Source of the DNA: Eledone cirrhosa
Taxonomy: Eukaryota
Length of the DNA: 64,000 bases
Direction of reading: 5' to 3'
Assembly (NCBI GenBank): GCA_964016885.1
Contig: OZ024741.1
Location: forward strand, 121,024,001 to 121,088,000
The position numbers were made by a program, and so were the translations under genes. Shown piece after piece: positions 2,304 through 23,936 of this stretch (within the stretch, counting starts at the first letter, position 1; every line of letters begins with the position of its first letter). The notes under the pieces were generated by a model that was not told where the DNA came from, made no database searches, and saw only the letters and a program-made list of their open reading frames with translations.

Positions 2304-2427
2304 GAACACCTGAAGTCATATATAGATAAAATGTTTCGAGCAATAACAACGTCGGGGTTTGCTTGTCCACAAGTGATGTGTGAAGTTTTTTACACATTGA
2401 AGGAGGCAGCCAGAAAACACTTCCCAG
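2304..2427 (+). CDS. RASA3: RASA3/GAP1-like exon (RasGAP domain); first RASA3 exon found in the window, gene starts upstream
   Basis: ttgacag|GAA...CCAG|gtattt; 124 nt, phase 0 to 1; encodes EHLKSYIDKMFRAITTSGFACPQVMCEVFYTLKEAARKHFP, matching recalled human RASA3 [40 protein letters not shown]. Confidence 0.93.
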
Positions 2428-2459
2428 GTATTTCAAACTTTTCAATTTTGTTTAGTCAG

Positions 2460-2900
2460 TACTGGTGGCATTATAAAAAATGCTCAGTCTACTCTGTAAA
2501 ATGGCAGTGCCAACGCTATGATAAAATGCTTCCTATACACTTTGTAAAGTGTTAGTGTTGGTGCCATGGTAAATGTTCTCAGTTCACCCTGTCAGGTGGT
2601 AGTGCTTGTGTCACAATAAAATGCTCTCAGTCCACTCTGTAAAGTTGTGAGTACTGGTGCCATGATAAAAAGCACCCAGTCCACTCTGTAAAGTTGTAAT
2701 ACTGACACCATGATAAAAATGCTCTCAGTACACTCTGTAATGTGGTAGTGCTGGTTCCATGATGAAAAGTACCCAGTACATTTTATAAAGTGATAGTGCC
2801 ATGATAAAAAGCACCCAGTCCACGCTGTAAACTGATAGTCATGTTGTCATGTAAAATACACTCAGTACTCGCTATAAAGTGGTTGGTGTTAGAAAAAGCA
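2460..2900. repeat. degenerate minisatellite (about 43-45 bp) derived from SINE body
   Basis: Repeated actctgtaaagtggtagtgctggtgccatgataaaaagcacccagt. Confidence 0.8.
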
Positions 2901-4095
2901 TCCTGCTGTAGGAACTATACTAAAAATGAAACATGTGCCTGGGAATAAGACAAGCCCTCTAACCTATCTATGCAAGCATGGAAAATAGATGTTAACTGGT
3001 GATGATGATGATTATGATAAATCAGAAAGAGAGTGATGTGTAAGCAGCAAACTCTGCTAAAGGCACCAAAATACCAGGTTATACTTAAACCTTTTGATAC
3101 TAAACTGCCAGAAAATGGTTCAGATTATATTATACAAAACAGTAAATTTTATGTAAGAACATTTGTTGAGTTATGTCCAAAATACTAGCTTTACTCTAAA
3201 TGTCCTTCCTAATCTGTATGAAAAACACATTAACAAGACATTCTTGAAAAAGTACAAAACTACTATGACTGCATTGCGGACACCATGATTTGACGCATAG
3301 AGTTACGGCCCTTGCCATTCTGAGTTCAAATCCCGCCGAGGTTAACTTTGCCTTTCATCCTTGCGGGGTCGATAAAATAAAGTACCAGTAATGCACTGGA
3401 TAATTGCTGGCTTTGTGCCAAAAGTAGAAACAATTATATAATGTATTGTACCTGTAATTCAGAGGGCTAGTCTTGTTATACTATGTTACACTGAATCTCC
3501 TTGAAAACTATGTATCATTGGAAAACTATGTATCATTGAAAACTATGTATCATTGGAATGCTCAGTCACTTGCACGTTAATTTCATGAGCAGGCTGTACC
3601 TTTAGTCAGACAACTGGAACACTTGTTGAAACCAGCTGTGTCAAAGACATGACAGCTGCCCTAATTCTGGTGTCATGATAAAATGCACCTGGTGCATTCT
3701 GTAGAGTATGGGTACATATGTGAGCAAGATACAGCCTCTGGCCAGTCGGAGACATCAGCAGCTCTGTTCAACCCTTGTTAACTGGGAAAAAGGACATTAA
3801 CCCTTTAGCATTTACATTACTCTATATATACTATTATATTTTCACGGTAAAGGCTTTACTTCATATAATTATCTCACATAATATCGAATCTATGAGGTTT
3901 TGATATTATTTATTTTGAAAACACTACCTTAACATCAATATGAGCAGCTGGTTACAGCCAGTTTGAACAGAAAGAGGTGAGAGAATTCTGGCTGGATACA
4001 GCCAGTTTAAATGCTAAATGTTGATGATGATAGTTATCTTGGCATCTTTACCAATGTTCACTTTCATCCAATTGATATTTATCTTTCATCTTCAG

Positions 4096-4202
4096 ATAAT
4101 CGAGAAGTTCGATACCAAGTTGTTAGTGGGTTTGTCTTCCTCCGGTTTTTTGCCCCTGCAATTTTAGGTCCAAAACTTTTTGAGCTACGAACCAACATGC
4201 AG
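4096..4202 (+). CDS. RASA3: RASA3-like exon with RasGAP FLR signature
   Basis: ttcag|AT...CAG|gtgaga; 107 nt, phase 1 to 0; [36 protein letters not shown] contains the FLRxxxPAxxxP RasGAP motif. Confidence 0.96.
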
Positions 4203-5909
4203 GTGAGAATTTCTTCAAATGATAACTTTTGCGGTTTTTAAAATTTTTTTTACAAACATAAGCACAAACATGGTTGTCTGGTTTTGTGTCCACTCCTCCT
4301 GTGTGGCACTTTGGGCAAGTGTCTTTCTTTTATTATAGCCTTGGGTTGACCAATAGCTTGTCAGTAAAATTTGATGATGGAAACTGCAGAAGCCTGTTGT
4401 TGAGTGATGGAGTGTTTGTATTTGAATTGGAGCGATTGAGTGAAGTACTTGAGTGAATGATGGAGAGTTTGAGTGATGAAGTGTTTTGAGTGATTGAGTG
4501 ACGTGCTTGTGTGAATGATGGAGCATTTGTTTGAGTTTACAACGATGATGATATATATGTATATATACATACAGTGTATATATACATACAGTGTATATAC
4601 CATGTATTCTCGTGTATAAGTCACCCCTTTCTCCATAGAAATACAATATGAGTAACTAGTTTGTGCCTCATCTACTGGATCTACAACACATCAGTTCAGA
4701 ATATATGGTATATTGTAAATATTGCATGTAAAATGGAGGTGTGACTTATACATGAATATATGAAAAAATGTGATGAAATGAAATTTACAGGTGATATCTA
4801 TGCAGACTTAGGTGGCTTCCTCTAAAGCTGTGTCTTGTAGGAGGTTTATGGGGGTATTTTAATGATAGGAACAACAGTTCTATCAGGAAAAGCAATGTCA
4901 AATGAAGCATCTTGCTCAAGAATAGAATGTGCCACTCTGTCCAGGAATCAAACCCATGGCTTTATGTTCATGAGTCCAACACCATAACCACTTGGCCACA
5001 TGCCTTCATGGTACATTGTAAATTGTAAATGCTATATGTAAAATGGAGGAGATATTTTAATATATATGGCACCTTGTAAATGTTCAATTAGCAGTAGCAA
5101 CAACTTAACATGATTCATAATAGAGATATATATGGAGACATATATAATATGTTTATGTATAATAAACATATATAAGTCTCACTATAAATATTTTAAGATG
5201 TGATCATGTATATCACATGGCTACTGAGATAGCTGTGACTTGATCACAGCTTAAAACATACATAACAAGACTTATTGGATTGGCAGTATTGGTAGAGCAT
5301 TGGTCAATATGCTTTGTGGTATAGAGTTGTGGCCCTTTATGTTCTGAGTTCAAATTCTGCCGATGTAGGCTTTGCCTTTCATCCTCACTGGGTCGGTAAA
5401 ATAAAACATTGGTAATGCACTGGGGGTCGATTTAATCAACATTCCCCTCCCCCTCAAAATTTTTGGCCTTGTGCCTAAATCAAAAACTATTATTTACAAA
5501 TATATTGTATATGCCTCGTTATACACCTCTGTTGTAATTGTTGTATTTATGGAGGAGTGGCATGTATACACTGGTATATATAAGGTGGCAAATTGGCAGA
5601 GTCGTTAGAACATTAGATAGAATGTTCTCTGAGTTCAAATTCCGTTGAGGTCCACTTTGCCTTTCATCCTTTCGAGGTTGGTAAAAAAAGTAATGGGGTC
5701 GATTTTTTCTCTCTCTGGAAGAAATCTGCTATAATCAGGCCTGGAGAGGGATGGACTCCACCAGGCTTAAAATGCCCAAGAAATGCTGTACATGAATATG
5801 GCATCCCTATGACTCTATCAGGATTTACAGGACCATACATATATGGTAAGTGTTGAATATCTAAGCTAACCTGGAAATATATATTGAAGTGCTTTGTTTC
5901 TTTTGCCAG

Positions 5910-5987
5910 GATGCAATGACCAACAGAGCCTTAACTCTCATCTCTAAAGCAATACAAGGACTTGGAAATCTAGTCAGCTCTCGCTCA
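5910..5987 (+). CDS. RASA3: RASA3-like exon (RasGAP C-terminal helix)
   Basis: ttttgccag|GAT...TCA|gtaagt; 78 nt; DAMTNRALTLISKAIQGLGNLVSSRS (compare RTLTLISKTVQTLG). Confidence 0.95.
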
Positions 5988-6009
5988 GTAAGTAATGCTT
6001 CATTTATAT

Positions 6010-6280
6010 CTATATTTACCTATCTGTGATGTATATCTACTTATCTTTGATGTATATCTACCTATCTGTGATGTATATTTACTTATATTTGATGTATATC
6101 TACCTGTCTTTGATGTATATCTACATATTTGATGAATATTTACCTGTTTGGTGTATATCTACATGTTTGATGTATATTTACCTATGTTTAATGTATACTT
6201 ACCTATGTTTGATGTATATCTACATGTCTGATGTATATTTACCTATATTTAATGTATATCTACATATGTTTAATGTACTG
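6010..6280. repeat. minisatellite of about 20-21 bp filling the short intron
   Basis: tgatgtatat(c/t)tacct(a/g)t(c/t)t repeated. Confidence 0.85.
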
Positions 6281-6367
6281 TTGTAGTTGCTGCTACTGCA
6301 GCTGTTGTTTTTTTACTATGCTGAATTTTATATATAAACTTTCATTCTCCCTCTCTTTTGATTTTAG

Positions 6368-6451
6368 CATTCCTTTGGGCTCAAGGAAGACTACATGGTC
6401 CCACTTTTTCAATATTTGTCAGGAGAGCAGCATATTGACAGCGTTAAAAAG
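6368..6451 (+). CDS. RASA3: RASA3-like exon (KExYM motif)
   Basis: ttttag|CAT...AAG|gtagca; 84 nt; HSFGLKEDYMVPLFQYLSGEQHIDSVKK. Confidence 0.92.
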
Positions 6452-6561
6452 GTAGCATGCATTATCATCACACATACATAGACTCACACACACATTTAGA
6501 TAAACAGACACATCCACCCAGACACACACACACAGACACATGCACACTCACACACATACAG

Positions 6562-6595
<34 letters not shown>

Positions 6596-7029
6596 ACATC
6601 ATCGGCATTACTTTACACCCGCTTTTCATGCTTGTATGGTTTGGGAACCATATCACACTTGTATGTTCCAATATTTGGCATAGATTCTATGCTTACGTGT
6701 GTGTGTGTGAGAGAGAGAGAGAGAAAGTGTGTGAAAGAGAGAGAGACAGAGACAGAAATAAATTACTTTAGCAATTCTAAGGTTTATTCTTAGAAAATCT
6801 AAAAAATCCCAAACACAGAAATAACTGTAAAAACAGTTGATCTTTATAAATAATAGCTTAGAAAATCAGATAAAACACCCCTAATGATGTTGTTTAGTTC
6901 AATGGTACAGAGTGCTCAGCTGGAATTTGTGAGGTACAGAGTTCAACTCCCTGAGCGGCTACTGACCACTTTTGTTTCCATCTATTGGGATATTTTACCT
7001 GATTTTATAAGATATTATTTATAGCAAGG

Positions 7030-7680
7030 ACGGTAGATTGGCAGTACTGCTAGAGTATTGGAGAACATACTTTTGCAGCATGTAGTTATGTCACTTCATG
7101 TTCCGAGTTTAAATCCCATCGAGGTTAGCTTTGCCTTTTATCCTTACGGTGTTGATAAAATAAAGTATGAGCAATGTACTGGGGTCAATTTAATTGACTT
7201 CCCCTTCCCCCAAATTGTTGGCCTGGTGCCTAAATCAGAAACAATATTTATAGCAAGGGTATTCGATTGGCAGTATCGGTGGAGCATCGGACAATTTGCT
7301 TTGTGGCATGTAGTTACGTCCTTTTATGTTCTGAGTTCAAATCTTGCCGAGGTTAGCTTTTCCTTTCATCCTTATGGGATTGATAAAATAAAGTACCAGT
7401 AATGCACTGTGGTCAATTTAATCGGTTTTCCCCACCCGAAAATTGTTGGCATTGTGCCTAAATCAGAAGCCATTATTTATTGCAGTGAATTGGCAGTATC
7501 AGTAGAGGGTCGAACACCATGCTTTGACGCATAGAGTTACGGCCCTTGCCATTATGAGTTCAAATCCCGCCGAGGTTGACTTTGCCTTTCATCCTTACGG
7601 GGTCGATAAAATAAAGTACCAGTAATACACTGGGATAATTGCTGGCCTTGTGCCAAAAGTAGAAACAATTATTTATTGCA
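7030..7680 (+). mobile_element. tandem cluster of the dominant tRNA-SINE family
   Basis: Repeated ttggcagtatcggtagag...gagttcaaatcccgccgaggttaactttgcctttcatccttacggggtcgataaaataaagtaccag. Other copies include 675-855, 3300-3435, 37065-37250, 48308-48475, 52915-53320, 61470-62170 and 63872-64000. Confidence 0.85.
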
Positions 7681-7798
7681 ATTGACTAAGTTCACATTTA
7701 TTTCTGTATTTGAGATTTTCTACATTTTCTAAGAATTTCAATCGATCCAACACTGGTTTATCTACAAAATGGTACATCTCAGACCTCTGTACTTTCAG

Positions 7799-7872
7799 TT
7801 CTTGGATATTATATCATCAGGCTCAAGGGTGTCAATAAGAGATATTGAAGCTCCAACAATATTGAAGGAAGG
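7799..7872 (+). CDS. RASA3: RASA3-like exon (end of GAP domain, start of PH domain)
   Basis: ctttcag|TTC...GG|gtgagt; 74 nt, phase 0 to 2; FLDIISSGSRVSIRDIEAPTILKEG. Confidence 0.94.
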
Positions 7873-7881
7873 GTGAGTTAC

Positions 7882-7939
7882 TTATCATTGTCGTTGTCAT
7901 CGCCGCCGCCACCACCACCACCACCACCACCACCATCAC

Positions 7940-7975
<36 letters not shown>

Positions 7976-8445
7976 TGTCGTCATCATCATTGTCATCATT
8001 GTTGTCATCATCATTGTCATCATTGTCATTGTTGTATTTGTCATCATCATCATCGTCGTCGTCGTCGTCGTCGTTGTCATTTGTTGTCAACATCATCGTT
8101 GTCGTCATTATTGTTGTCATCATCATTGTCATCATCATCATTGTCATTGTCATCATCATCATCATGATCGTCGTCATTGTCATCGTCATCATCATCATCG
8201 TCATCATCATCATTGTCGTTATCGTCATCATCGCCGTCATCATCATCATCATCATCATCATTGTCGTTATCGTCATCATCGTCGTCATCATCATCATCAT
8301 CATCATCATTGTCGTTATCGTCATCATCATCGTCATCATCATCATCGTCATTGTCGTTATCGTCATTATCGTCGTCATCATCATCGTCATTATAGTTGTT
8401 ATCATCATCACCGTCATCATTGCCATCTTCATCTTCATTATCATT
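7882..8445. repeat. long compound (CAT/CGT/CAC)n trinucleotide tract
   Basis: Direct inspection; starts about 10 nt after the exon donor and runs into a reverse SINE/RTE tail. Confidence 0.95.
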
Positions 8446-9620
8446 TTTATATTCACTTTTCCATGCTGGCATGGGTTGGATGGGTTGGTTTGAGGCAATG
8501 TTTTACAGCCAGATGCTCTTCTTGATGCCAACCTTTTTTGTTGCCTCATACGACATTATGACATGCAGGGATACAGTGTACCTATTCTAAAAACTGGGAT
8601 ACACTCCCACACACACACCCACATGCATACATACCCACATACATACACACACCTACATAAATACACATATATACATACACATGTATACCCATATGCATAC
8701 ACATATATACCCACATGCATACATACACACACATATCCACATTTCCACACACACATACAATAATCTTTTTTCATAATATTTATACCTTTTTCTGTGGATG
8801 CAGCATGGCTAAATGGTTAAGAGGTTTACTTCACAATCATTAGTTCTGGATTCAATCACACTTCGTGGCATCTCAGGCAAGTGTCATTTACCATAGTATC
8901 AGGTTGACCTAAGATTTTATAGTGAAATTGGGAAGACAGAAACTATGGAACCCAGTTGGATGAACTATACTTGTAATTTAAACAGCCAGCCTTGTCACAC
9001 AATGTCATGCTGAATCCCTGAGGATTACATAGGGGTTTAAGTGTCTGAGAACACTTAGTCATTTATATTGTAATATATGATGGATTGTATCTGTAATTCA
9101 AAGGGTCAGCTTTGTCACATACTGTGTTATGCTGATTCTCCCTGAGAATATCATTATAGGGATATGTATCTAGGGAATGTACAGTCACTTACATTATAAA
9201 ACAGAATGGACTGTACCTGTAATTCAAATTTCCAGTATTGTTACACACTGTCATACCGAATCTCCCTGAGAATTACATTAAGGTTTACCTGCCTGTGGAA
9301 CACTCAGTCATTTATATTGTAATATAAGATGGATTGAACCTGTACTTCAAACACACACTGTGTCACACTAAATCTCTCAGAGAATTACATTACTTACACA
9401 TTAATTTCATGAGCAGTCTGTTTCGTTGATCAAACAACTGGAACACCCATCAGCAAAACCATTTGAAATTGTAATATTTTTCCACTAATGGAGGAGGGCA
9501 AATGGTTTTAGGTGAACTAGAAGCATTGACTGCAACAGTCAACTGTTTTTCTTTATATATCTGTATATTCCCTGATGATTTCTTCTGATCAGTAATGTTG
9601 TTTTTCTTATATGTTAATAG

Positions 9621-9727
9621 TATGATGATCAAAAGGGCACAAGGACGAGGTATTTTTGGTGTGAAGAACTTCAAACGTCGTTATCTCTGCTTAACAAATC
9701 AAAGCCTATTCTACTCCCGAGAAAAAG
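9621..9727 (+). CDS. RASA3: RASA3-like exon, PH domain strands 1-3
   Basis: taatag|T...G|gtaagt; 107 nt, phase 2 to 1; [35 protein letters not shown] (compare [25 protein letters not shown]). Confidence 0.96.
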
Positions 9728-10736
9728 GTAAGTATTTTGCTAAATATTTTTTAACCTTTTTGTTCCCTCGGTAAGCAAGATGTAGCTTAAAATTACGATG
9801 GACAGTTTTTAGAGAAATATAAGTTAAAATTTATTTAATAAAATTGTATTATATCAATAATAATGGTTTTTGATTTAGGCACCAGGCCAACAATTTTGTG
9901 AGAGAAGTTAATTAAGTCACCTCAGAGTGTTTCTTGTATTTTATTTTATTGACCTGCTAAGGATGAAAGGCATAGCTAACCTTGGTAGGATTTGAACTCA
10001 GATTGTAAAGGGACATAACTAGATGCCACAAAATATGCTGTCTGACACTCTAGCGTTATTGCCAATCCATCACCATTTTTATATCAATAATAATAGTTTC
10101 TGATTTAAGCACAAGGCCAACAATTAAATCGACATCAGTGCATTAATGGTACTTTATTTTATCAACCCTGTACGGAAGAAAGGTAAAGCTAATCTCAGCT
10201 GAATTTGAACTCAGAATGTAAAGGGGCATAACTCTGTGCTGCAAAGCATATCTGATGCCCAACTCATATTGATGAATAATATAATTTGAGAGGTTCTGTA
10301 TGTTAAAAATAATACAAAAAGTTAGTCTGTCCTTAGCCCTGAGGCTTATCAGGCTGAAGCTTATCCTAGTTTCATGAATCATTAAGTGATTGAGAATACA
10401 TGACTACCCCTGGATGGATGCTAGTGTGTTGTAGCGTTTATCCCCAGCTGATCCTGGAATCAAATCTTTGATGGGATGACTGTAAGACCAGACTCCCTAG
10501 GTTATGCACCTTTACAATGTCTAGTATAAAGCCCCTTTCAGTCATGATTGACCATGTGTGTGTACCTGGACAGTTGCTCTCCAAGGCATGAGGCCAGGTA
10601 AGGTGTTTTATAGAAGACCAGTAGTCATCTATACATACACATATCAGTCTCCATGTCACTGTTGTTGTCCAAGAGAAAGACAAAGGCCAATACAACTTGG
10701 CACTGGTGACATCACAAATCATATATATGTATATAA

Positions 10737-11995
10737 GTGTTATAGCACAACTAATCAGGGACAGAATCAAGTTAGATGAGATGCAGTTTGGATTTATGCC
10801 AGGTAGGGGTACTATTGATGTCCTCTTTGTGGTGAGACAACTACAGGAGAGGTATTTAGCTAAGAGTAAGCCACTGTATCTAGCATTTATAGATTTAGAG
10901 AAGGCCTTTGACAGGGTCCCATGCTCTATAATCTTGTGGACATTTAGGAAGTTATGTGGGGGTCCACCAGGGATCAATTCTCATCCACTCCTTTTTATTA
11001 TGGTACTTCAGGCCATCACTGAAGAGTTTAAAACTGGCACTCTATGGGAGCTCCTATATGCTGATGACCTAGTCCTCATAGCTGAATCCGTAGGAGAATT
11101 AGGGGCAAAATTTCAATCATAGAATAAGAACCTAGAGTTGAAAGGTCTAAAAGTCTTAATAAATAGAAAAGAAGACAAGAAGGTGATACCATCAGGAAAG
11201 TGACCTTGTTCAATATGTCGGAAAGGGGTGGGCAGAAATTCCATAAGGTGCACACAATGTAAATTATGGATGCACAAGAGATATAGTGGAATTGCAGGTA
11301 TGCTAACAGAAAAGATAGACTTTATATGTGGCTGATGCACAGTGGAAGTGAGCACAAAGAACACACATGAAATAGATTCCCTCAGCTGCCAGGGGAGCTC
11401 TCTAGAAGTTGTTGACAGCTTTTGATACCTAAGTGATCAAATTAGTAGTGGGGGAGGATGTACTGAAAGTGTTATAGGATAAGAACAGGTTGGAAGAAGT
11501 TTAGAGATTTATTACTGATGTTAACAACAAAATGCTTTTCTCTTAGAGTGAAAGGTAGACTGTATGATGCCTGTGTGCTAACTTAATGCTACATGGCAGT
11601 GAAACATGGGCCTTGACTGTGGAAGACGTGTGGAGTCTAGAGAGAAATGAGTTGAGTATGCTCCAATGGATGTGTAATGTTATTGTGCAGGAATGGCATA
11701 GTATAAGCACACAGAGAAAAACTTGGCCGAAGAGGAATTGGATGTAGTGTGCAAGAGAGAAGACTGCATTGGTATGGACATGTGATGTGCATGGAAGATA
11801 GCTGCTGCATAAATAAATGCAGAGAAACTCCAGTGGCTGGAACGTGTGGAAGAGGCAGGCCCAGGAAGACATGGGATGAGGTTACGAAGACTGACCTTAA
11901 AAAACTAAACCTCGCAACAGAAATAACTAAAGACCATAAGGGCTGGTGCTATGCAGTGCTGAAGAAGGCCCGACCTGCAGCATACAATGTGACCT
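10737..11995 (+). mobile_element. RTE-clade LINE fragment (reverse transcriptase, decayed)
   Basis: ORF QFGFMPGRGTIDVLF...FIDLEKAFDRVP...LLYADDLVLIAES, then RRLHWYGHVM...GRGRPRKTW; frameshifts and stops. Confidence 0.92.
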
Positions 11996-12976
11996 GACCT
12001 ACCCAATGTCCCCCCTCCCACTAGCATTCCCTAACAGTTATTCTCAACATCATTACTTCAACACTGTGTGTGTCTGCTTCCACATTCCTAGCAGCTGTCC
12101 CTGTGTGAAGTCATTGGTGATAAGAAGGGCATTTAGCTATGGAGAGCTCGCTCAACAAAGAGTCGGGAGGACCTTTCAGTGTGTCAAGGACACGGCAGCC
12201 TCCCTTGTGTTGGTGATCTAAACTATAAACACATCCAGTACACAGTGTAAAGTGGTTGGTGATAAGCAGGTCATCCAGCCATAGAAAGCTTGTCAGACAA
12301 AGGGTCAAGAGAACCCTTCAGTTGTGTCAAGGATATGACAGCCTCCCGGAAAGACGAGGAACAATATGGGCAGGGTTAATAGAGAGAGCCTTAAAACAAA
12401 ACAAAGTTATCAGATTTGAAAAAGTGAAGTAGATTAATGAATGAACAGGTAGTTGGGAGAAAGACAAGTAATTTTACATTAATTGCAGCTTTTCCAAGCA
12501 TCAGTGATAGAATCAGATGAATCGAGGAAAAATATATATCATCATCATCACCATTTAACATTACCTTTTGCATGCTAGCAATATATATATATATATACTA
12601 TATAAGCACCAGTATTCACTATATATGATGTTGTCCAAGGGAAAGGCAAAGATCAATACTGCTTGACACCAGTGACATCACAATTCTCCTTTTCTAGCTG
12701 AGTGAACTGGAGCAATATGAAATAAACTGGTTTGCTCAAACACACCAGGTATTGCTTTCTCTAGGAATCTAACTTAACCATTTTACACTCTTGAGTCCAA
12801 TACTGTAACCACTAGGTAGTGCAGCTTCACAGTGTGTTACCTGGTCCAGGAATCAAACCCACAACCATACAATAATGACCCCAACACCCTAAACACTGTG
12901 CTACATGGTTTCACTGTCTTTTGAAACATTATTTATTCTTTTGATTCAGTCTTTGTTTGATATTTATTTTTTGTAG

Positions 12977-13059
12977 GAGATGAAGTTTTATGTGAAATCC
13001 CCATCCATAACATATGGGCAGTAGAACGGTTACAAGAGGAGTCGTTTAAAATGAAATAT
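12977..13059 (+). CDS. RASA3: RASA3-like exon, PH domain
   Basis: ttttgtag|GA...TAT|gtaagt; 83 nt, phase 1 to 0; GDEVLCEIPIHNIWAVERLQEESFKMKY. Confidence 0.96.
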
Positions 13060-13644
13060 GTAAGTATCACCATTTCCTTCCCTTTTTAATACACACTCTG
13101 TGTCATTATGATATGTTGTTGTAGGTGCAGCCATGTCTGTGTGGCTCTATCCCTCTACATGGAACCTTGAGCAAGTGTCTTTTACAATAGCTTTAGATCA
13201 ATCAATGCCCTGTAAGTGAATTTCATAGATGGAAGCTTTACTGATCTCTTTGTATAGAACATCATCATCACTATTACACACCATAACTGTGTGAGTTCAG
13301 TTTAGAATAGGTGAACCATATCACGCATTTCATAAGAAACGACAAAAGGGGTTGATGCCGAGAAAGGCATCTGGCTGTAAAACGTTGTCTCAAAAAGTCC
13401 TGATGGTTGTGATGTTGCTGATGGTGATGGTGGTGATGGTGATTATGATGAGTACGATGGTGGTGATGGCAATTATTATGATGGCAGTGATGGTGATGAT
13501 GGTGATGATGGTGACAAGGGTGATGGTAATAGTGATGATGTTGGGAGTGATGGTGGTGATGTTGCTGCTGATCTCTAAATCTACATCTTTTCTGTAGTTT
13601 TTTATTCCATATCTTCCTCACCCCTCCTCTGTTGTATCTTCCAG

Positions 13645-13715
13645 ATGTTCCAAGTAGTCCAACCAGAGAGAGCCTTATATATACAAGCTAACAACTGTGT
13701 TGAAGAGAAAGAATG
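13645..13715 (+). CDS. RASA3: RASA3-like exon, PH domain C-terminal part
   Basis: cttccag|ATG...TG|gtaaga; 71 nt, phase 0 to 2; [24 protein letters not shown], nearly identical to recalled human [24 protein letters not shown]. Confidence 0.97.
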
Positions 13716-14613
13716 GTAAGAACCTTTTCATTTCTTAATATTTCTTCATTATTCTTTTTTTTTTTCTTACCATTTACCATAACCATGTGTATTCAGTTTA
13801 GAATAAGTAGACCATATCACGCTTGTTGTAAGAAGCTACAAAATGTGTTGGTGTTAAGATGAACATCTTGGTTGTAAAACATTGTCTCAAAAAGTCCTGT
13901 CCAACTCATGCCAGCATAGAAAAGTCAGTGTAAAAACAATGGTGATGATTTAGTCAGGCAGATAAGGGTAGCACCCTTGAGCCTTTATTTTGGAGGGGGG
14001 GGGGGGGGGGGGGCTTCCAAAACTGGTGGAAGAAATGGAGAAAATTATTCTCAAACTGGAGATAATCATTTTGAAAATAATCAAGAACATAACAGAATTA
14101 TAGTGGAAGAAAATATGCTGTTTTCTATATTGGAAAGTTTTTAGATAAATATAAACACTTTAAAATAAACAACTTACTATCATAGGTGTTGAAATGACAT
14201 ACTGATCCACTAGTCATTTTTCTTCAGCCATAGTTGAAGAGAAGTGGCTGGTTTATAAAGCATGTTTTATTTCAATTAATTGATAAAAAATTTGGTGGAT
14301 TTTACTAAAATTATCAATTATTACATTATTAAGATCATGTTTGTAACGAGATTTTTATATTAAATTATGATGGAAGATTTTGGTTTTAGATAACAATAAT
14401 TTAAAGTAGGTGGTTTTATATCACAGAACCAGAGGTAGTTTTGGTAGGGTTAGTTTGAAAAATGTTAATGTGTAATTCAGTATGTAAGAGATGTATTTTT
14501 AACATTTAAATTTTAGTTGCTGGAATTAATTCATAATGTGAGACTGGCCAGGAGTTGTCTCCCCTGTTTACACCTTTCTCCAGTAACTTGTCAACATCTT
14601 ATAACAATATATA

Positions 14614-14692
14614 CAGAGTGTCCCCCAAAAATGTATACACACATTCATTATTTTGCTGTTGAAATGTGTATATATTTTTTTAGGACACCCTG
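14614..14692. mobile_element. tiny Tc1/mariner-type MITE
   Basis: TA|CAGAGTGTCCCCCAAAAATGTATACAC ... GTGTATATATTTTTTTAGGACACCCTG|TA. Confidence 0.7.
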
Positions 14693-16043
14693 TATATATA
14701 TTAATGTTTGTGTGCCGCTTATGGTTATGTTTGTGTCTGTGTTTACATCCTGTAACCTAGTGGTTCACCAATAAAAAGGTTAATAGAATAAGTACTTGGG
14801 TCGATATGATTGATCAAATCTAGGTAGTGCCCCAGCATCGTTGGCGGCTAATAACTGGAACCAGTAAAAGGATACAGCTGTATATGAATTAAAAGGGTAA
14901 GAGTAAAGCCCCCCCCCCCCCCTTTAGACACATATGATCATGGGATTTGCATCTAGAAAGTTCCCCATCTGAGGCACAAACCTGAGCAAGGTTGTTTGGT
15001 GAAGACCAGCAGTCTCCCATGCATATCGGTCTACCCTCTCTATGCCACTGAGGTTGTCCAAGGGAAAGCCAAAAGCTGATACAGTTTGAGTAAACTGAAG
15101 CAACATGAAAATTAAAGTATCTTACTCAAAGACACAACACATCACCCGGTCTTGGAATTAAACTCATAACCTCATGATTACAGGCCCAGTAATTTAACGA
15201 TTAAGCCATGTGCCCATATATGATATGCATATGTGTAATAAACATATTTTTAGTTTCGCTGTGAGTATTTCAAGTTGTGATGATGTCACAGCAACCTCAG
15301 CATCAGGGTAAGAGCAGTGGATACGTGCATTTCGCAGTCATAACTCTTTGTTAACACTCGCGTGCCTATGTTCAAATGACAAGATATGAAAGACAATATT
15401 GTCTCATAGATTTTGTGTGTGTTTGTCATATATATATATTGTATAGTGGTCGTGTAAGTATCACGACAAAAAGCAGCCAGCCCATACTGTAAAGTGGTCG
15501 TGTAGGCGTCACAACAAAAAGCACCCAGTACTCACTGTAAATGAGGTTGGCGCTAGGAAGAGCATCCAGCTGTAGAAACCAAGCCAAAATCAGTTCTATA
15601 TAAGCAAGGTATGGTCACCTGACATAGCATTGCCCACAACAGGACAACTCGTCTAACCCATACTAGCTTGGAAGAATGGACATAAAACGGTGATGATAAT
15701 ATGTACACACACACCGTACATACTTATTTATAAGTCATACCTTTTTCTATGAAAATATGACCTGAAAAACCAGCATATGTCTTATCTACTAGTATGACAT
15801 ATATACAGTAATTCATTTAAAATCAACTGGTCCAACACATGCCAACATGTGCAATGGACATAAAATGGTGGCAGTGGTGATGATGATGATGATAATGATG
15901 ATGACAATGATAATGGTAGTAATGATATGATGATGATGTGTTGATGTGAGGATGATGTGGTGATGATTTTAGTGTTGTTGACGGCGACTACGATATATTA
16001 AAAATTTGATCTAAAGGAATTTATTTTCTTTTCCATTCTTCAG

Positions 16044-16133
16044 GCTTGAATTATTGAAACAGATCTGCAATTCCAATAAAAATAGGTTAAAAAAATACCA
16101 TCCAGCTGCATATATTGGCAACCATTGGTTATG
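16044..16133 (+). CDS. RASA3: RASA3-like exon, PH helix and start of Btk zinc motif
   Basis: ttcttcag|G...TG|gtaagt; 90 nt, phase 2 to 2; LELLKQICNSNKNRLKKYHPAAYIGNHWLC. Confidence 0.96.
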
Positions 16134-16677: not shown

Positions 16678-16835
16678 CTGTAAACACACAGACTATAATG
16701 CAGAAGGATGTAAGCCTGTGTCTGGGGGACTTCAGGTGGTTGAGATCCAGGTAGATAAGATAGATGCTGACAGAGAAGTGGAAAAGATACATTCTTTGTA
16801 CTTCACAGCTATGGATAAACTGGAAGGAATGCAAG
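16678..16835 (+). CDS. RASA3: RASA3-like exon, Btk motif end and C-terminal helical region
   Basis: ccaacag|C...G|gtaaga; 158 nt, phase 2 to 1; CKHTDYNAEGCKPVSGGLQVVEIQVDKIDADREVEKIHSLYFTAMDKLEGMQ completes the H-CC-C Btk zinc ligands. Confidence 0.95.
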
Positions 16836-19250: not shown

Positions 19251-20628
19251 CTGTGCAGTAACTTTGAACTGTTGCCACTCAATAGCTTTGAAATGATGCT
19301 GTGCAGTAGCTTTGACATGTTGTTTTACTTTGCTTTTTATCCTTATGAGGTTGATAAAATAAAGTACCTGTCAAGTACTGGATTTGAGATAAGCGACTTT
19401 CCCTTCTCCCATCAAACTGTTGGTCTCGTGCCTAAATTAGAAACTATTGATCAACTGAATTAGTCGACAACATCCCAGACTTCATTCACTTACCAAGTGG
19501 GGTAGAACTCGTCAAATTAGACCAAGGAAACTTCCATTGCTGATACTATCTACTGGGCACAGCTCCTGGCAGAAGTAGCCATGTGGAATAAAGTGTCTTG
19601 CTCAAGGACATAATGCATGTCCCGGTCCTGAAATCGAACTCACAACCTCACAATTGCAAATCCAATTCTCTAATCATTAAACCACACACCTATTATTAAA
19701 TTGAAAGTTATTTATTTCACTAACTCTCTCATAATTCTTGATTATCAAAACAGCAAAGCAGTATATTCTTGTTTGAATTATGGTCAAAATAGGGTTAATA
19801 CAAATTAATATATTCCAAAAAAAATCTAAATGATCTTTTTTCTTCCATCAAATCATCATAACCATCATCTTCACCACCACCATCATTTCATTTTATTAAC
19901 ATCTTAACTCTTAATATCCTGTACCAAATGAAACCACATTAGCAAGACATTCTTGAAAAATACAAAATAGCATTATGACTGCATCACATAAAAAATTAAA
20001 GCCTTTAGTTTACAGAAGATTTTCACAGTGATAAGAACATTAGCAATATACTATAAACATTTGAATAAACAAACCACATGAAATCACATTAGCAAGACAT
20101 TCTTGAAAAGTACAATATTATGACTGCATCACATTAAAAATTAACCCTTTACCCTTTACTCTATATTTACTATTGTATTTTCACAGTAAACACTTTACCT
20201 CACATAATATTGAATCTATGAGATTTCAATATTATTTATTTTGAGAACAATACCTTAACATAACTTATGGGGTTAAAGTCTTTACTCTATCTATAATAAT
20301 AATAATGAAATTATTGTGTACAGTGCTCAGGTGCACTACAACTCATCAAAGGTGCATGTATAGTACATAGAATAATGTACAAATGTCAGGAAAATGAACA
20401 GTGTATGAGTCATGATATAATAACAACAACAATAATAGCACAGCAATTTTTTTTACAACAATCTGTCCACTAGTAAAAACACTATAAACATTTGAATCAA
20501 ACCATTTGTTTTTAGACATTTATTTGCTAAATCATTACATGATGTTAAGAGTTAATAAATTATCTATAATAAAGAAAACATTTTTTAAATCACTTTTTTT
20601 GAGATATGTGCTTTTTACTTGCATGCAG

Positions 20629-20649
20629 CTAAAAGGAAGTCTATTCTAG
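20629..20649 (+). CDS. RASA3: candidate alternative 21-nt microexon of RASA3 (adds AKRKSIL)
   Basis: gtgctttttacttgcatgcag|CTAAAAGGAAGTCTATTCTAG|gtaagg; length divisible by 3 and stop-free in phase 1, matching the flanking exons. Confidence 0.6.
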   Translation, partial: LKGSLF

Positions 20650-20685
20650 GTAAGGAATGTCACCTGATTGAATGAAGAATCAATC

Positions 20686-20720
<35 letters not shown>

Positions 20721-22364
20721 AAATAATAAAGAGTTGAAGATACACCTCAGGTTTTTCTTATATATACTTGCAAATTTACAGTACACAACAAAAATATATT
20801 AAATGTATTATTTCATACAAAATAGTTTTTTTTTTAATGTAACCTTGAAAAGTATACTTTGAAAAACTAACCATAGCTGAAACTGGTCAGTACAACAAGA
20901 ATTGAATAACCATAGTTCTTTTTGTACCCCCACCCCCACCCTTTAAAAACAACAACACAAATTTACTCTGTATGAATGTAATGTGGTTGGTGTTAGGAAG
21001 GGCATCCAGCTGTAGAAACCAAGTCAAAATATAGATCTGTATGAGCATGGTTTGGTCTCTGGACCTGACTTTTCTCATAATGTGATAATCCATGCGGAAA
21101 ATGGACGTTAAACGACGATGATGATGAACAGATTTCATTTTGTTTTGTACTGTAAATTAGCATGTTTATATAACAAAATATTAGTTGTATTTTAACTCTT
21201 TATTGATATTTTTCATATATAACATAATTTGTACAGAATTCTTTAATTTTCAAACCTTTTAATTTTTTCACTTCACATTCACAAACACATATATGTTCAA
21301 ATATATTCTCACACTTGATGTGTGCAAAATAAATGGATGTAGCAGCTTTTGTGATTTAGTACTTATTGTTTAGTTTATTTACTCCTATTTTTTTTTTTTC
21401 CAATTCTTTAGTCATGTTTTTTAAATTGTTTGTTGACTTGTAGGAAGTTAGTTTTGTGTCTGCACTATTTTCATAAAACAAAAAAAAACAATAACAAAAA
21501 CAAAAACAAACCAACATACAAACAAAAAGAAAAAGAAAGAAGCTGATGTAAAATGATGATGATGGTATTATGTATATGTGTGTGTATGTAAGTATATATG
21601 TATAAGAGTGCAGAGAGTAACCTGTCATGCACACTTTGTGTGTTAGCTACTTTTCCACCCTAATGGGTAGCATGAGTTAGGTGTTTTTTATTTAACTTTT
21701 TTTCTAAATGATTCTTTTAACCCTTTAGCATTACGTTACTCTATATATACTATTGTATTTTCACGGTTAACACTTTATTTTACATAATTATCTCATATAA
21801 TAATGAATCTATGAGATTTTGATATTATTTATTTTGAGAACATAAGTATGAGCTGCCAGTTATGGCCGGTTTGAACAGAAAGAGGTGACAGAATTCTGGC
21901 TGGATATGGCCAGTTTAAAGGCTAAAGTGTTAAAGCAAATTTTGTTTTTTCTAAATAATTTTTTAAAACGAAATTAAAACATTCAGTCCTACTCCCTAGC
22001 ACAGCTAACTTTAAATGGTGGATGGTAGATTTTTATACTGTTTATTACTTCACCAATGGAGAGGCAAATGTCAGAGACATGTGAACTGTGGCAACCTAAA
22101 TAATATAAATTTCTGATTTAGGCACAAGGTTAATAATTTTGAAGGAGGGGAAAGTCGATTAAATCAACCCAGTGCGTTGCTGGTACTTTATTTTATCAAA
22201 CCTGTAAGGATGAAAGGCAAAGCTAACCTTGGCGGGATTTGAACTCGGGATGAAAAGGGCCGTAACTCAATGCAGCAAAGCATGTTGTCTGACATTGTCC
22301 TATATTAATATAATAGACAGTTATTTGAAAAACTTAATGTAATGGCACAATAACTGTAGTTGGG

Positions 22365-23199: not shown

Positions 23200-23380
23200 A
23201 TGCCTGTGCCAGTCAAGAGGTTTACACAGGTGACAGTGAACTTCCAGCGTCAATGCATATTGAAGACACAAAAAGTTGTTTTGAGACACTAAACAGCATA
23301 TTATCATGTGTTATAAAGCTGGAACAGGAGCATAAGCAATATAAGAAAACCCTTCAGAAGCAAACAATCAAAGGTTCATG
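23200..23380 (+). CDS. RASA3: RASA3-like penultimate coding exon
   Basis: attccag|AT...TG|gtaagt; 181 nt, phase 1 to 2; DACASQEVYTGDSELPASMHIEDTKSCFETLNSILSCVIKLEQEHKQYKKTLQKQTIKGS (compare [20 protein letters not shown]). Confidence 0.95.
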
Positions 23381-23872
23381 GTAAGTGGTCCTTCACTCTT
23401 CTGCTATCAACCCACCTGAATCCACTTCTGGGTTTATGATACAAAATAGTTTGTTTTTACATGTTTATATTTATTTCAAAACCTTCCATCACAATACTGC
23501 AAATTTTCACAACAATCTGTCCACTAGTAAAGATACTATAAACATTTAAATTAACAAACTGTTTTTAGATATTTTCTGCTAAATCATTAAAAGATGTTAA
23601 AAGATAATATAATTAAATTTAAGTAATAATACTGTACAATTTCACACCAATCTGTCCACTAATAAAGGTACTATAAACATTAATGTAACAAATATATTTT
23701 TAGATATTTTCTGCTGAATCATTACAGGATGTTAAGAGATAATACTGCAAATTTTCACACCAATCTATTTTTAGTAAAGATACTATAAAGACTTGAATTA
23801 ACAAACTTTTTAGATATTTTTTTCAAAACCATTACAAGATGTTAAGAATTAATTTATATTTTTAATTTCCAG

Positions 23873-23936
23873 TGAGGCACCGTTTGGTGATGAGAAATAT
23901 ACAGATGTTCAATGCTGTGACAATCTTCGGCATTAG
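23873..23936 (+). CDS. RASA3: RASA3-like last coding exon, ending in TAG
   Basis: atttccag|T GAG GCA CCG TTT GGT GAT ... CAT TAG; phase 2; (C)EAPFGDEKYTDVQCCDNLRH* (compare EHPIGDKSF). Confidence 0.88.

Follow-up and report, generated by a model that had tools for sequence, protein, structure and literature searches.

Does the large phase-1 intron of the RASA3 gene of Eledone cirrhosa hold a genuine alternative microexon, and what might seven additional residues change in the C-terminal region of a RasGAP? The window analysed here, meaning the whole stretch of 64,000 nucleotides (contig OZ024741.1, positions 121,024,001 to 121,088,000, forward strand), was the subject of a preliminary description that had claimed a frame-preserving 21-nt microexon in a 6.4-kb phase-1 intron of RASA3. 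Its coordinates and sequence were found to be exact. The questions taken up below are whether the exon is used, how it may be regulated, how old it is and what its inclusion would do to the protein.

The microexon and its host gene

The features of the locus are given one per line, with positions counted from the first letter of the window.

2304..16131, plus strand: nine further RASA3 exons, encoding GAP, PH and Btk, residues 436-707
16678..16835, plus strand: upstream exon, encoding the end of the Btk motif and the first helix of the C-terminal region; 3' end CAA-G
20450..20562, plus strand: intronic repeat copy, 75-85% like three tandem units at 23504-23853
20604..20628, plus strand: 3' splice site, with UGC at 20609, 20620 and 20624, UGCAUG at 20620-20625 and AG at 20627-20628
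20629..20649, plus strand: microexon, presumed alternative, 21 nt, phase 1-1, inserting AKRKSIL after Gln760 (O. sinensis numbering)
20650..20655, plus strand: 5' splice site, GTAAGG
23200..23380, plus strand: downstream exon, encoding the conserved C-x4-VY-x-G, the turn, I[ED]D and the second C-terminal helix
23873..23936, plus strand: last coding exon, containing the stop codon

Within the window, RASA3 exons cover O. sinensis residues 436-837; the exons that encode C2 are situated further upstream, outside it. The nine exons at 2304..16131 are 95-100% identical to O. sinensis, except for one tblastn piece that overruns into an intron. By Pfam the O. sinensis orthologue has the order C2-C2-RasGAP-PH-Btk (PH 588-686, Btk 695-723), and this architecture, the exon matches within the window and the protein tree described below all place the gene with RASA2/3 of the GAP1 family. 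The last exon (23873-23936, plus strand) reads 11 residues beyond the end of the Octopus and Argonauta proteins; longer RASA3 tails are likewise found in three Logan cephalopod proteins.

The intron removed upon skipping is 6,364 nt long and of phase 1, and the microexon divides it into 3,793 and 2,550 nt. With 21 nt between AG and GTAAGG, the exon has canonical splice sites and falls within the size range reported for microexons, 3-27 nt. When it is included the reading frame continues without a stop as Q-AKRKSIL-D.

Isoforms annotated in other octopuses

The decisive evidence that the exon is real and alternative comes from annotated isoform pairs in two other octopuses. Both O. bimaculoides (XP_052826754.1 / XP_052826752.1 and A0A0L8HME2 / A0A0L8HMB9) and O. 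sinensis (XP_036362732.1 / XP_029641857.1) are annotated with RASA3 isoforms that carry AKRKSVL and others that lack it, the insertion point being shared. The window agrees with these two species in every residue of AKRKS. In position, in length, in 6 of 7 residues and in having both forms annotated, the octopus isoforms correspond to what the window predicts; they differ in carrying Val where the window has Ile, and they are database models. The exon is thus real and alternative in O. bimaculoides and O. sinensis, where it is already annotated, and it is almost certainly real in E. cirrhosa as well. In the nearest-protein cluster the skip form is represented by O. vulgaris and Argonauta models and by three Logan proteins.

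Conservation in other cephalopods had been put forward as a check on the preliminary description, and AKRKSVL at the same residue in both Octopus species answers it positively. The expectation that standard annotation would easily miss the exon was mistaken, as RefSeq and UniRef include the insert in two octopuses. Three runs behaved as genomic DNA, being unspliced across exon borders and leaving the microexon uncovered, and so have no bearing on expression.

Chance expectation and neighbouring repeats

Candidates were defined as stop-free, frame-keeping AG..GT segments of 6-33 nt, and were filtered for a GTRAG donor and a pyrimidine-rich YAG acceptor, with thresholds chosen post hoc, the candidate being in view. 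The good splice sites claimed for the exon were verified in that its AG and GTAAGG make it the sole one of the 167 candidates in its intron to pass. Across the window the filter is also passed by 6 of 1,677 candidates on the plus strand and by 1 of 1,475 on the minus strand, so that splice-site quality alone is no proof. That the segment is an unused pseudo-exon in E. cirrhosa, as the chance filter-passers elsewhere in the window might suggest, is nevertheless extremely improbable, given that both splice sites are intact and that six of the seven residues match isoforms of two other octopuses at the same position.

Two further short candidates were noted in RASA3 introns. The first, of 24 nt and the form AG..GTAAGT (5822-5845, plus strand), lies in the intron after residue 512 and could be due to chance; a Ruditapes isoform carries 27 additional residues at that site, and none of the octopod proteins compared does. 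The second, of 15 nt with a good donor (13197-13211, plus strand), lies in another intron and is unsupported by the proteins compared.

In the 2.996-Gb genome, positions 20560-20700 match only themselves, in a search that ignores very common words. An AT-rich repeat unit of 110-135 bp has a single copy shortly before the microexon and a tandem array of three copies in the following intron. Derivation of the exon from this repeat was rejected, since the upstream copy stops 66 nt before the acceptor and supplies no splice site.

Possible signals for neuronal inclusion

The three UGC triplets reported at the acceptor, one of them within UGCAUG, are present, the third (20624) lying within the acceptor's own UGCAG. 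At least three UGC in the final 25 nt is uncommon: 8 of the window's 3,346 YAG sites reach this number, and the other 11 acceptors of RASA3 all fall short of it. Targets of the eMIC domain are reported to be enriched for UGC close to the acceptor and also, though not as strict rules, for long AG-exclusion zones, for UCUC tracts and for CUAAY branch points (PMC8797185), and UGC is reported between branch point and AG in 74-79% of SRRM3/4 microexons (10.1101/2024.09.17.613571). UGC is the one such mark found here. The AG-exclusion zone of the microexon measures 23 nt, where the other 11 acceptors of the gene have a median of 26 nt (range 14-64). Neither UCUC nor CUAAY occurs within 100 nt of the acceptor.

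The genome encodes an SRRM_C/eMIC domain (PF15230, 29.3 bits with a cut-off of 27), whose reading frame runs on into a second exon at a distance of 21 kb (G000:C22:28146459-28167741, minus strand; L003/L005). In non-vertebrate bilaterians, 3' processing of Srrm234 is described as confining the eMIC to neurons (PMC8797185), and by analogy with fly Srrm234 a non-neural alternative last exon would be expected between the two eMIC exons.

Compared with eMIC-dependent neural microexons as described in these sources (PMC8797185; 10.1101/2024.09.17.613571), the octopod exon is alike in its length, its preserved frame, its acceptor-adjacent UGC, its strong donor, its signalling-gene host and the presence of an eMIC in the genome. 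It differs in that its AG-exclusion zone is not long, in that neither a UCUC tract nor a CUAAY branch point was found, and in that the RASA3 insert peptide is not conserved between lineages. From these features the exon likely works as an eMIC-dependent neural microexon does, and neural control by the eMIC itself appears reasonably probable.

A 6-nt eMIC-dependent microexon, DmeEX0005969, is listed for fly RasGAP1 (PMC8797185 table S2). The gene is orthologous (RASA3 in the GO tables of that study) and the exon is likewise a frame-keeping microexon, but it is only 6 nt long and probably falls where the PH domain begins, around residue 591, and not in the C-terminal helix. Identity of the two exons was rejected on account of this likely different site, ~591, which we infer by way of a termite KR insert.

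UGCAUG was found only at 19614, 20353 and 20620, with no occurrence in 20650-21700. Exons activated by RBFOX carry UGCAUG in the downstream intron, whereas RBFOX at the acceptor more probably represses. Because UGCAUG overlaps the acceptor and is absent for about 1 kb downstream, repression by RBFOX is likelier than activation. The RBFOX motif pointed out previously is therefore present, but its position favours skipping over inclusion.

A competing reading is that this is a real and old alternative exon that is neither neuron-specific nor driven by the eMIC, being for instance broadly used or muscle-enriched. A RefSeq name without an isoform label denotes a single model, and insert-bearing models of this kind were found for Ylistrum, Haliotis rubra, Physella and B. 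lanceolatum; in Mytilus the insert is present in 6 of 15 among the proteins listed. Such inclusion-only models in several species hint at broad inclusion in some lineages and would fit this reading, as would UGC being the sole eMIC cis-mark present and a UGCAUG placed for RBFOX-mediated skipping. The rarity in the window of acceptors with at least three UGC, the eMIC encoded in the genome and the eMIC-dependent microexon of the fly orthologue (PMC8797185) point the other way, and shortness is reported as a feature of deeply conserved neural exons (10.64898/2026.09.05.749416). We regard use that is neither neuron-specific nor eMIC-driven as rather unlikely, if a serious contender, and retain neural eMIC control as the working reading.

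Inserts at the same residue in other animals

In total 197 proteins were compared, drawn from homologue searches (one of them represented by 120 listed of 1,127) and from the members of 17 clusters, with large vertebrate clusters left out. The site is covered by 183 of them: 145 have unchanged spacing, 35 carry between 4 and 11 additional residues, one carries 41 and two, both from insects, have deletions. The other 14 do not cover the site. Beyond the octopods, inserts occur in a chiton (AYLCEIH), in gastropods (Littorina ACLKTGQ, Patella DCMRNAT, 8-10 residues in Haliotis and 11 in pulmonates), in bivalves (Mercenaria VSLKEY, Ylistrum VDLLSS, Mytilus AVMERK-like), in Lingula (VEQKSKC), in Lineus (EIASGQK) and in amphioxus (VYLY). 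None was found at this site among the arthropod and vertebrate proteins compared, a weak absence with large vertebrate clusters left out; isoform inserts in those groups lie at other places, close to residues 591 and 626. Of 29 protein pairs compared, 18 differ by an indel at the insert site, and in 12 species the insert is the sole length difference between two isoforms. Pairs of inclusion and skip forms, as an alternative microexon produces, are thus known from O. bimaculoides, O. sinensis and 10 further species. Searches of metagenome contigs with a degenerate exon pattern and with a mussel-like exon query gave no match.

Other parts of the gene also acquire inserts. The introns after 7873 and after 9729 correspond to residues ~591 and ~627, both of which are insert sites in other species, with isoform inserts of 2 and 8 residues in termite, 4-5 in cyprinid fishes and 22 in amphioxus. 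In RASA2/3 the surroundings of the PH domain appear to hold several places where alternative exons recur.

Composition of the insert peptide

Across lineages the charge of the insert ranges from -4 to +3, the octopod insert standing at +3. The pattern [RK][RK]x[ST] is the PKA-type phosphosite consensus, and the octopod insert matches it in sequence. It occurs in octopod inserts only, being found in 0 of the 14 non-octopod inserts tabulated, whose charge is -4 to +1. The idea of a phosphosite or basic patch, part of the preliminary description, therefore holds for the motif and the charge in octopods but fails as a general function: the motif is missing from the inserts of the 11 other lineages, many of them acidic. 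Confined as it is to octopods, the motif cannot be the ancestral function, and a conserved phosphosite was rejected.

A role that depends on the peptide sequence could still exist within octopods, either as a PKA/PKC-type site (KRKS-I/V) or as a basic membrane-binding patch, and would be compatible with a geometric effect of the insert. In its favour, three octopods share AKRKS, I/V aside, with its net positive charge and kinase motif, and the site lies ~75 residues past the PH domain (588-686). The lack of the motif in all non-octopod inserts tabulated counts against it; moreover, the flanking exons of the three octopods are 90-98% identical, and between species so close the identity of five residues says little. 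We consider such a role unlikely as the main one, and a phosphosite or basic patch may at most be an octopod add-on.

Some regularities are common to the inserts. Each of the 12 lineage-level inserts has A, D, E, G or V as its first residue (background 0.30 each), in keeping with a phase-1 intron after a G, for which the codon must start with G. The third position is hydrophobic in 9 of 12 lineages (binomial p 0.0013, the lineages not being independent), the octopod Arg being an exception. This position takes up the register of Cys763, which is present in 42 of 43 skip forms. A strict heptad spacer was rejected on the insert lengths of 4, 6, 7, 8, 10 and 11.

Common descent or repeated gain

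In a tree of 34 proteins Lophotrochozoa, Arthropoda and Chordata were each fully supported, and since the gene tree matches the species tree the proteins can be taken as orthologues. Gains and losses of the insert on this tree amount to 12 changes, equal to the shuffled value; this count carries no information, because absence mostly means that an insert was not annotated or not looked up. Positions 2-4 of the inserts are more alike than in shuffles when 12 lineages are used (p 0.001); with 7 class-level lineages the same likeness has p 0.096. Homology of the intron in other species rests on the comparison at the protein level. On that footing, the lophotrochozoan inserts very probably represent one microexon in the same phase-1 intron, drifted in sequence and length. 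For the amphioxus insert, shared descent and convergence are about evenly balanced. As judged from the proteins, the position of the site is old and the peptide is not conserved.

Alternatively the site may simply be permissive, with unrelated microexons arising repeatedly and being tolerated with little or only lineage-specific function (type I convergence). The differing sequences and lengths of the inserts would agree with this, as would the other RASA3 hot spots near residues 512, 591 and 626. Recurrent exon gain at equivalent positions is reported to be common, and the 12-nt amphioxus and 30-33-nt gastropod exons lie beyond the 6-nt tolerance for common descent used in the same report (10.64898/2026.09.05.749416). 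However, the inserts in four mollusc classes, the brachiopod and the nemertean are mostly of 18-21 nt and so inside this tolerance, the spacing of the skip form is unchanged in 145 of 183 proteins, the location is inside a predicted helix and not in a free loop, and the likeness at positions 2-4 over 12 lineages exceeds that of shuffles. Taken together, we judge repeated gain at a permissive site improbable and continue with a single lophotrochozoan microexon.

The C-terminal helix and possible Gαo docking

The AlphaFold2 model of the skip form has a helix at 753-768, a loop at 769-783 and a second helix at 784-815, with pLDDT of 91 for 751-760 and 76 for 761-770. The insert site lies inside the predicted helix 753-768, past the Btk motif and eight residues ahead of the loop. 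In the model of the inclusion form the helix extends to 772 and pLDDT falls below 50 for 764-785, a low value that may merely reflect that 39 of the 52 alignment rows of this model are without the insert. The insert separates the conserved D737-x-D-R-E and L756 from C763, V768, Y769, G771 and D783, residues that are kept, one by one, in 41-43 of the 43 skip forms. A fixed spacing that is broken by unrelated insert sequences suggests a geometric effect on the predicted Gαo docking site.

Human RASA3 is reported to bind Gαo directly, its last 119 residues being sufficient with Ca2+, and an AlphaFold 3 model places the contact at the turn between the two C-terminal helices (PMC12796736). Binding through the C-terminal region is described as weak (~10%) and not GTP-selective, and which protein is the direct effector of Gαo is given there as an open question (PMC12796736). 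We infer that the Gαo-contacting turn is the loop 769-783; this equation is our own, the turn being unnumbered in the text of PMC12796736. The octopus protein has a homologous two-helix region with the conserved C, VY-x-G and I[ED]D, but it differs from the human region in that the vertebrate proteins compared have no insert and in that Gαo binding by the octopus protein is presumed.

The E. cirrhosa genome has a Gαo-like gene, and a representative protein taken as a stand-in for its product is identical to the genome exons at 254 of 291 residues. The name of the gene is presumed from sequence motifs, as are those of the at least eight G-alpha-like loci (L008-L037), which we take to be Gαo-, Gαi-, Gαq-, Gαs- and Gα12-like. 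Sequence and fold searches of the PDB matched the C2, GAP and PH-Btk parts, with no RASA2/3 structure among the matches listed, and an Atlas search with the C-terminal region gave no usable match.

Proposed mechanism

Our tentative proposal, which we hold at somewhat less than even confidence, is an octopod cassette microexon with neuron-biased inclusion through the eMIC, by which a predicted Gαo/Ca2+ docking site would be retuned geometrically. The first step, in which the exon is spliced in or skipped with the frame kept, is seen in two other octopuses and would almost surely hold in E. cirrhosa. The exon would, secondly, have occupied the same phase-1 intron as a microexon since the lophotrochozoan ancestor, which is highly probable; the shared position is shown at the protein level, and the shared intron would follow from it. 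Thirdly, the eMIC acting at the UGC triplets would promote neuronal inclusion, a step to which we give moderate weight. Lastly, and with less assurance, the insert may extend the helix 753-768 and shift the conserved C-x4-VY-x-G motif by about two turns, taking the turn behind it out of register as well. The predicted consequence would be altered engagement of Gαo/Ca2+, and hence of neuromodulator signalling to Ras/Rap. In octopods the KRKS motif may layer phospho-control on this geometry. The earlier interpretation was right as to an alternative RASA3 microexon, but missed both the cross-phylum position and the reported Gαo-binding role of the region.

A broader version would make the exon a bilaterian-ancestral, neuron-specific RASA2/3 microexon that switches Gαo/Ca2+ docking, retained in Lophotrochozoa and amphioxus and lost in vertebrates and arthropods, with its position kept and its peptide rewritten. 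To this we give little credence at present.

Relation to described microexons and significance

No published description of the exon was found in a literature search made mostly without subscription papers, and the supplements of 10.64898/2026.09.05.749416 and of the 2019 eMIC paper, both of which take in octopus and amphioxus, may list it. RASA2/3 is unnamed in the main text of 10.64898/2026.09.05.749416, and the supplements of PMC9699675 (file 2 excepted) and of PMC12626424 gave no RASA matches. Neural microexons are reported to be little conserved beyond vertebrates and insects, with a median of 3% in outgroup species, and only two cases of bilaterian-ancestral neural microexons are given (10.64898/2026.09.05.749416); such conservation surveys sample one lophotrochozoan. 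The microexons of APBB1/2/3, MADD, spg/DOCK3/4 and syd/SPAG9 described there resemble the present exon: they too add a few residues in frame to signalling proteins, at positions that correspond between phyla (10.64898/2026.09.05.749416), and they are thought to tune protein contacts, as is proposed here. They were, however, defined in vertebrates and insects, whereas the RASA3 insert is found in Lophotrochozoa and amphioxus among the proteins compared.

The exon itself is ordinary and already present in database isoforms. What is of interest is that its position has been kept over four mollusc classes, a brachiopod, a nemertean and amphioxus with the peptide fully turned over, position without sequence conservation being a pattern that sequence-based exon orthology misses. 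The exon also adjoins the region of RASA3 recently reported to bind Gαo (PMC12796736). The natural pairs of inclusion and skip forms in a dozen species offer a ready test of the Gαo interface and of control by splicing of neuromodulator-to-Ras signalling in cephalopod brains. If the ancestral Gαo switch were true, the exon would provide a natural on/off variant with which to test RASA3 as a direct Gαo effector.
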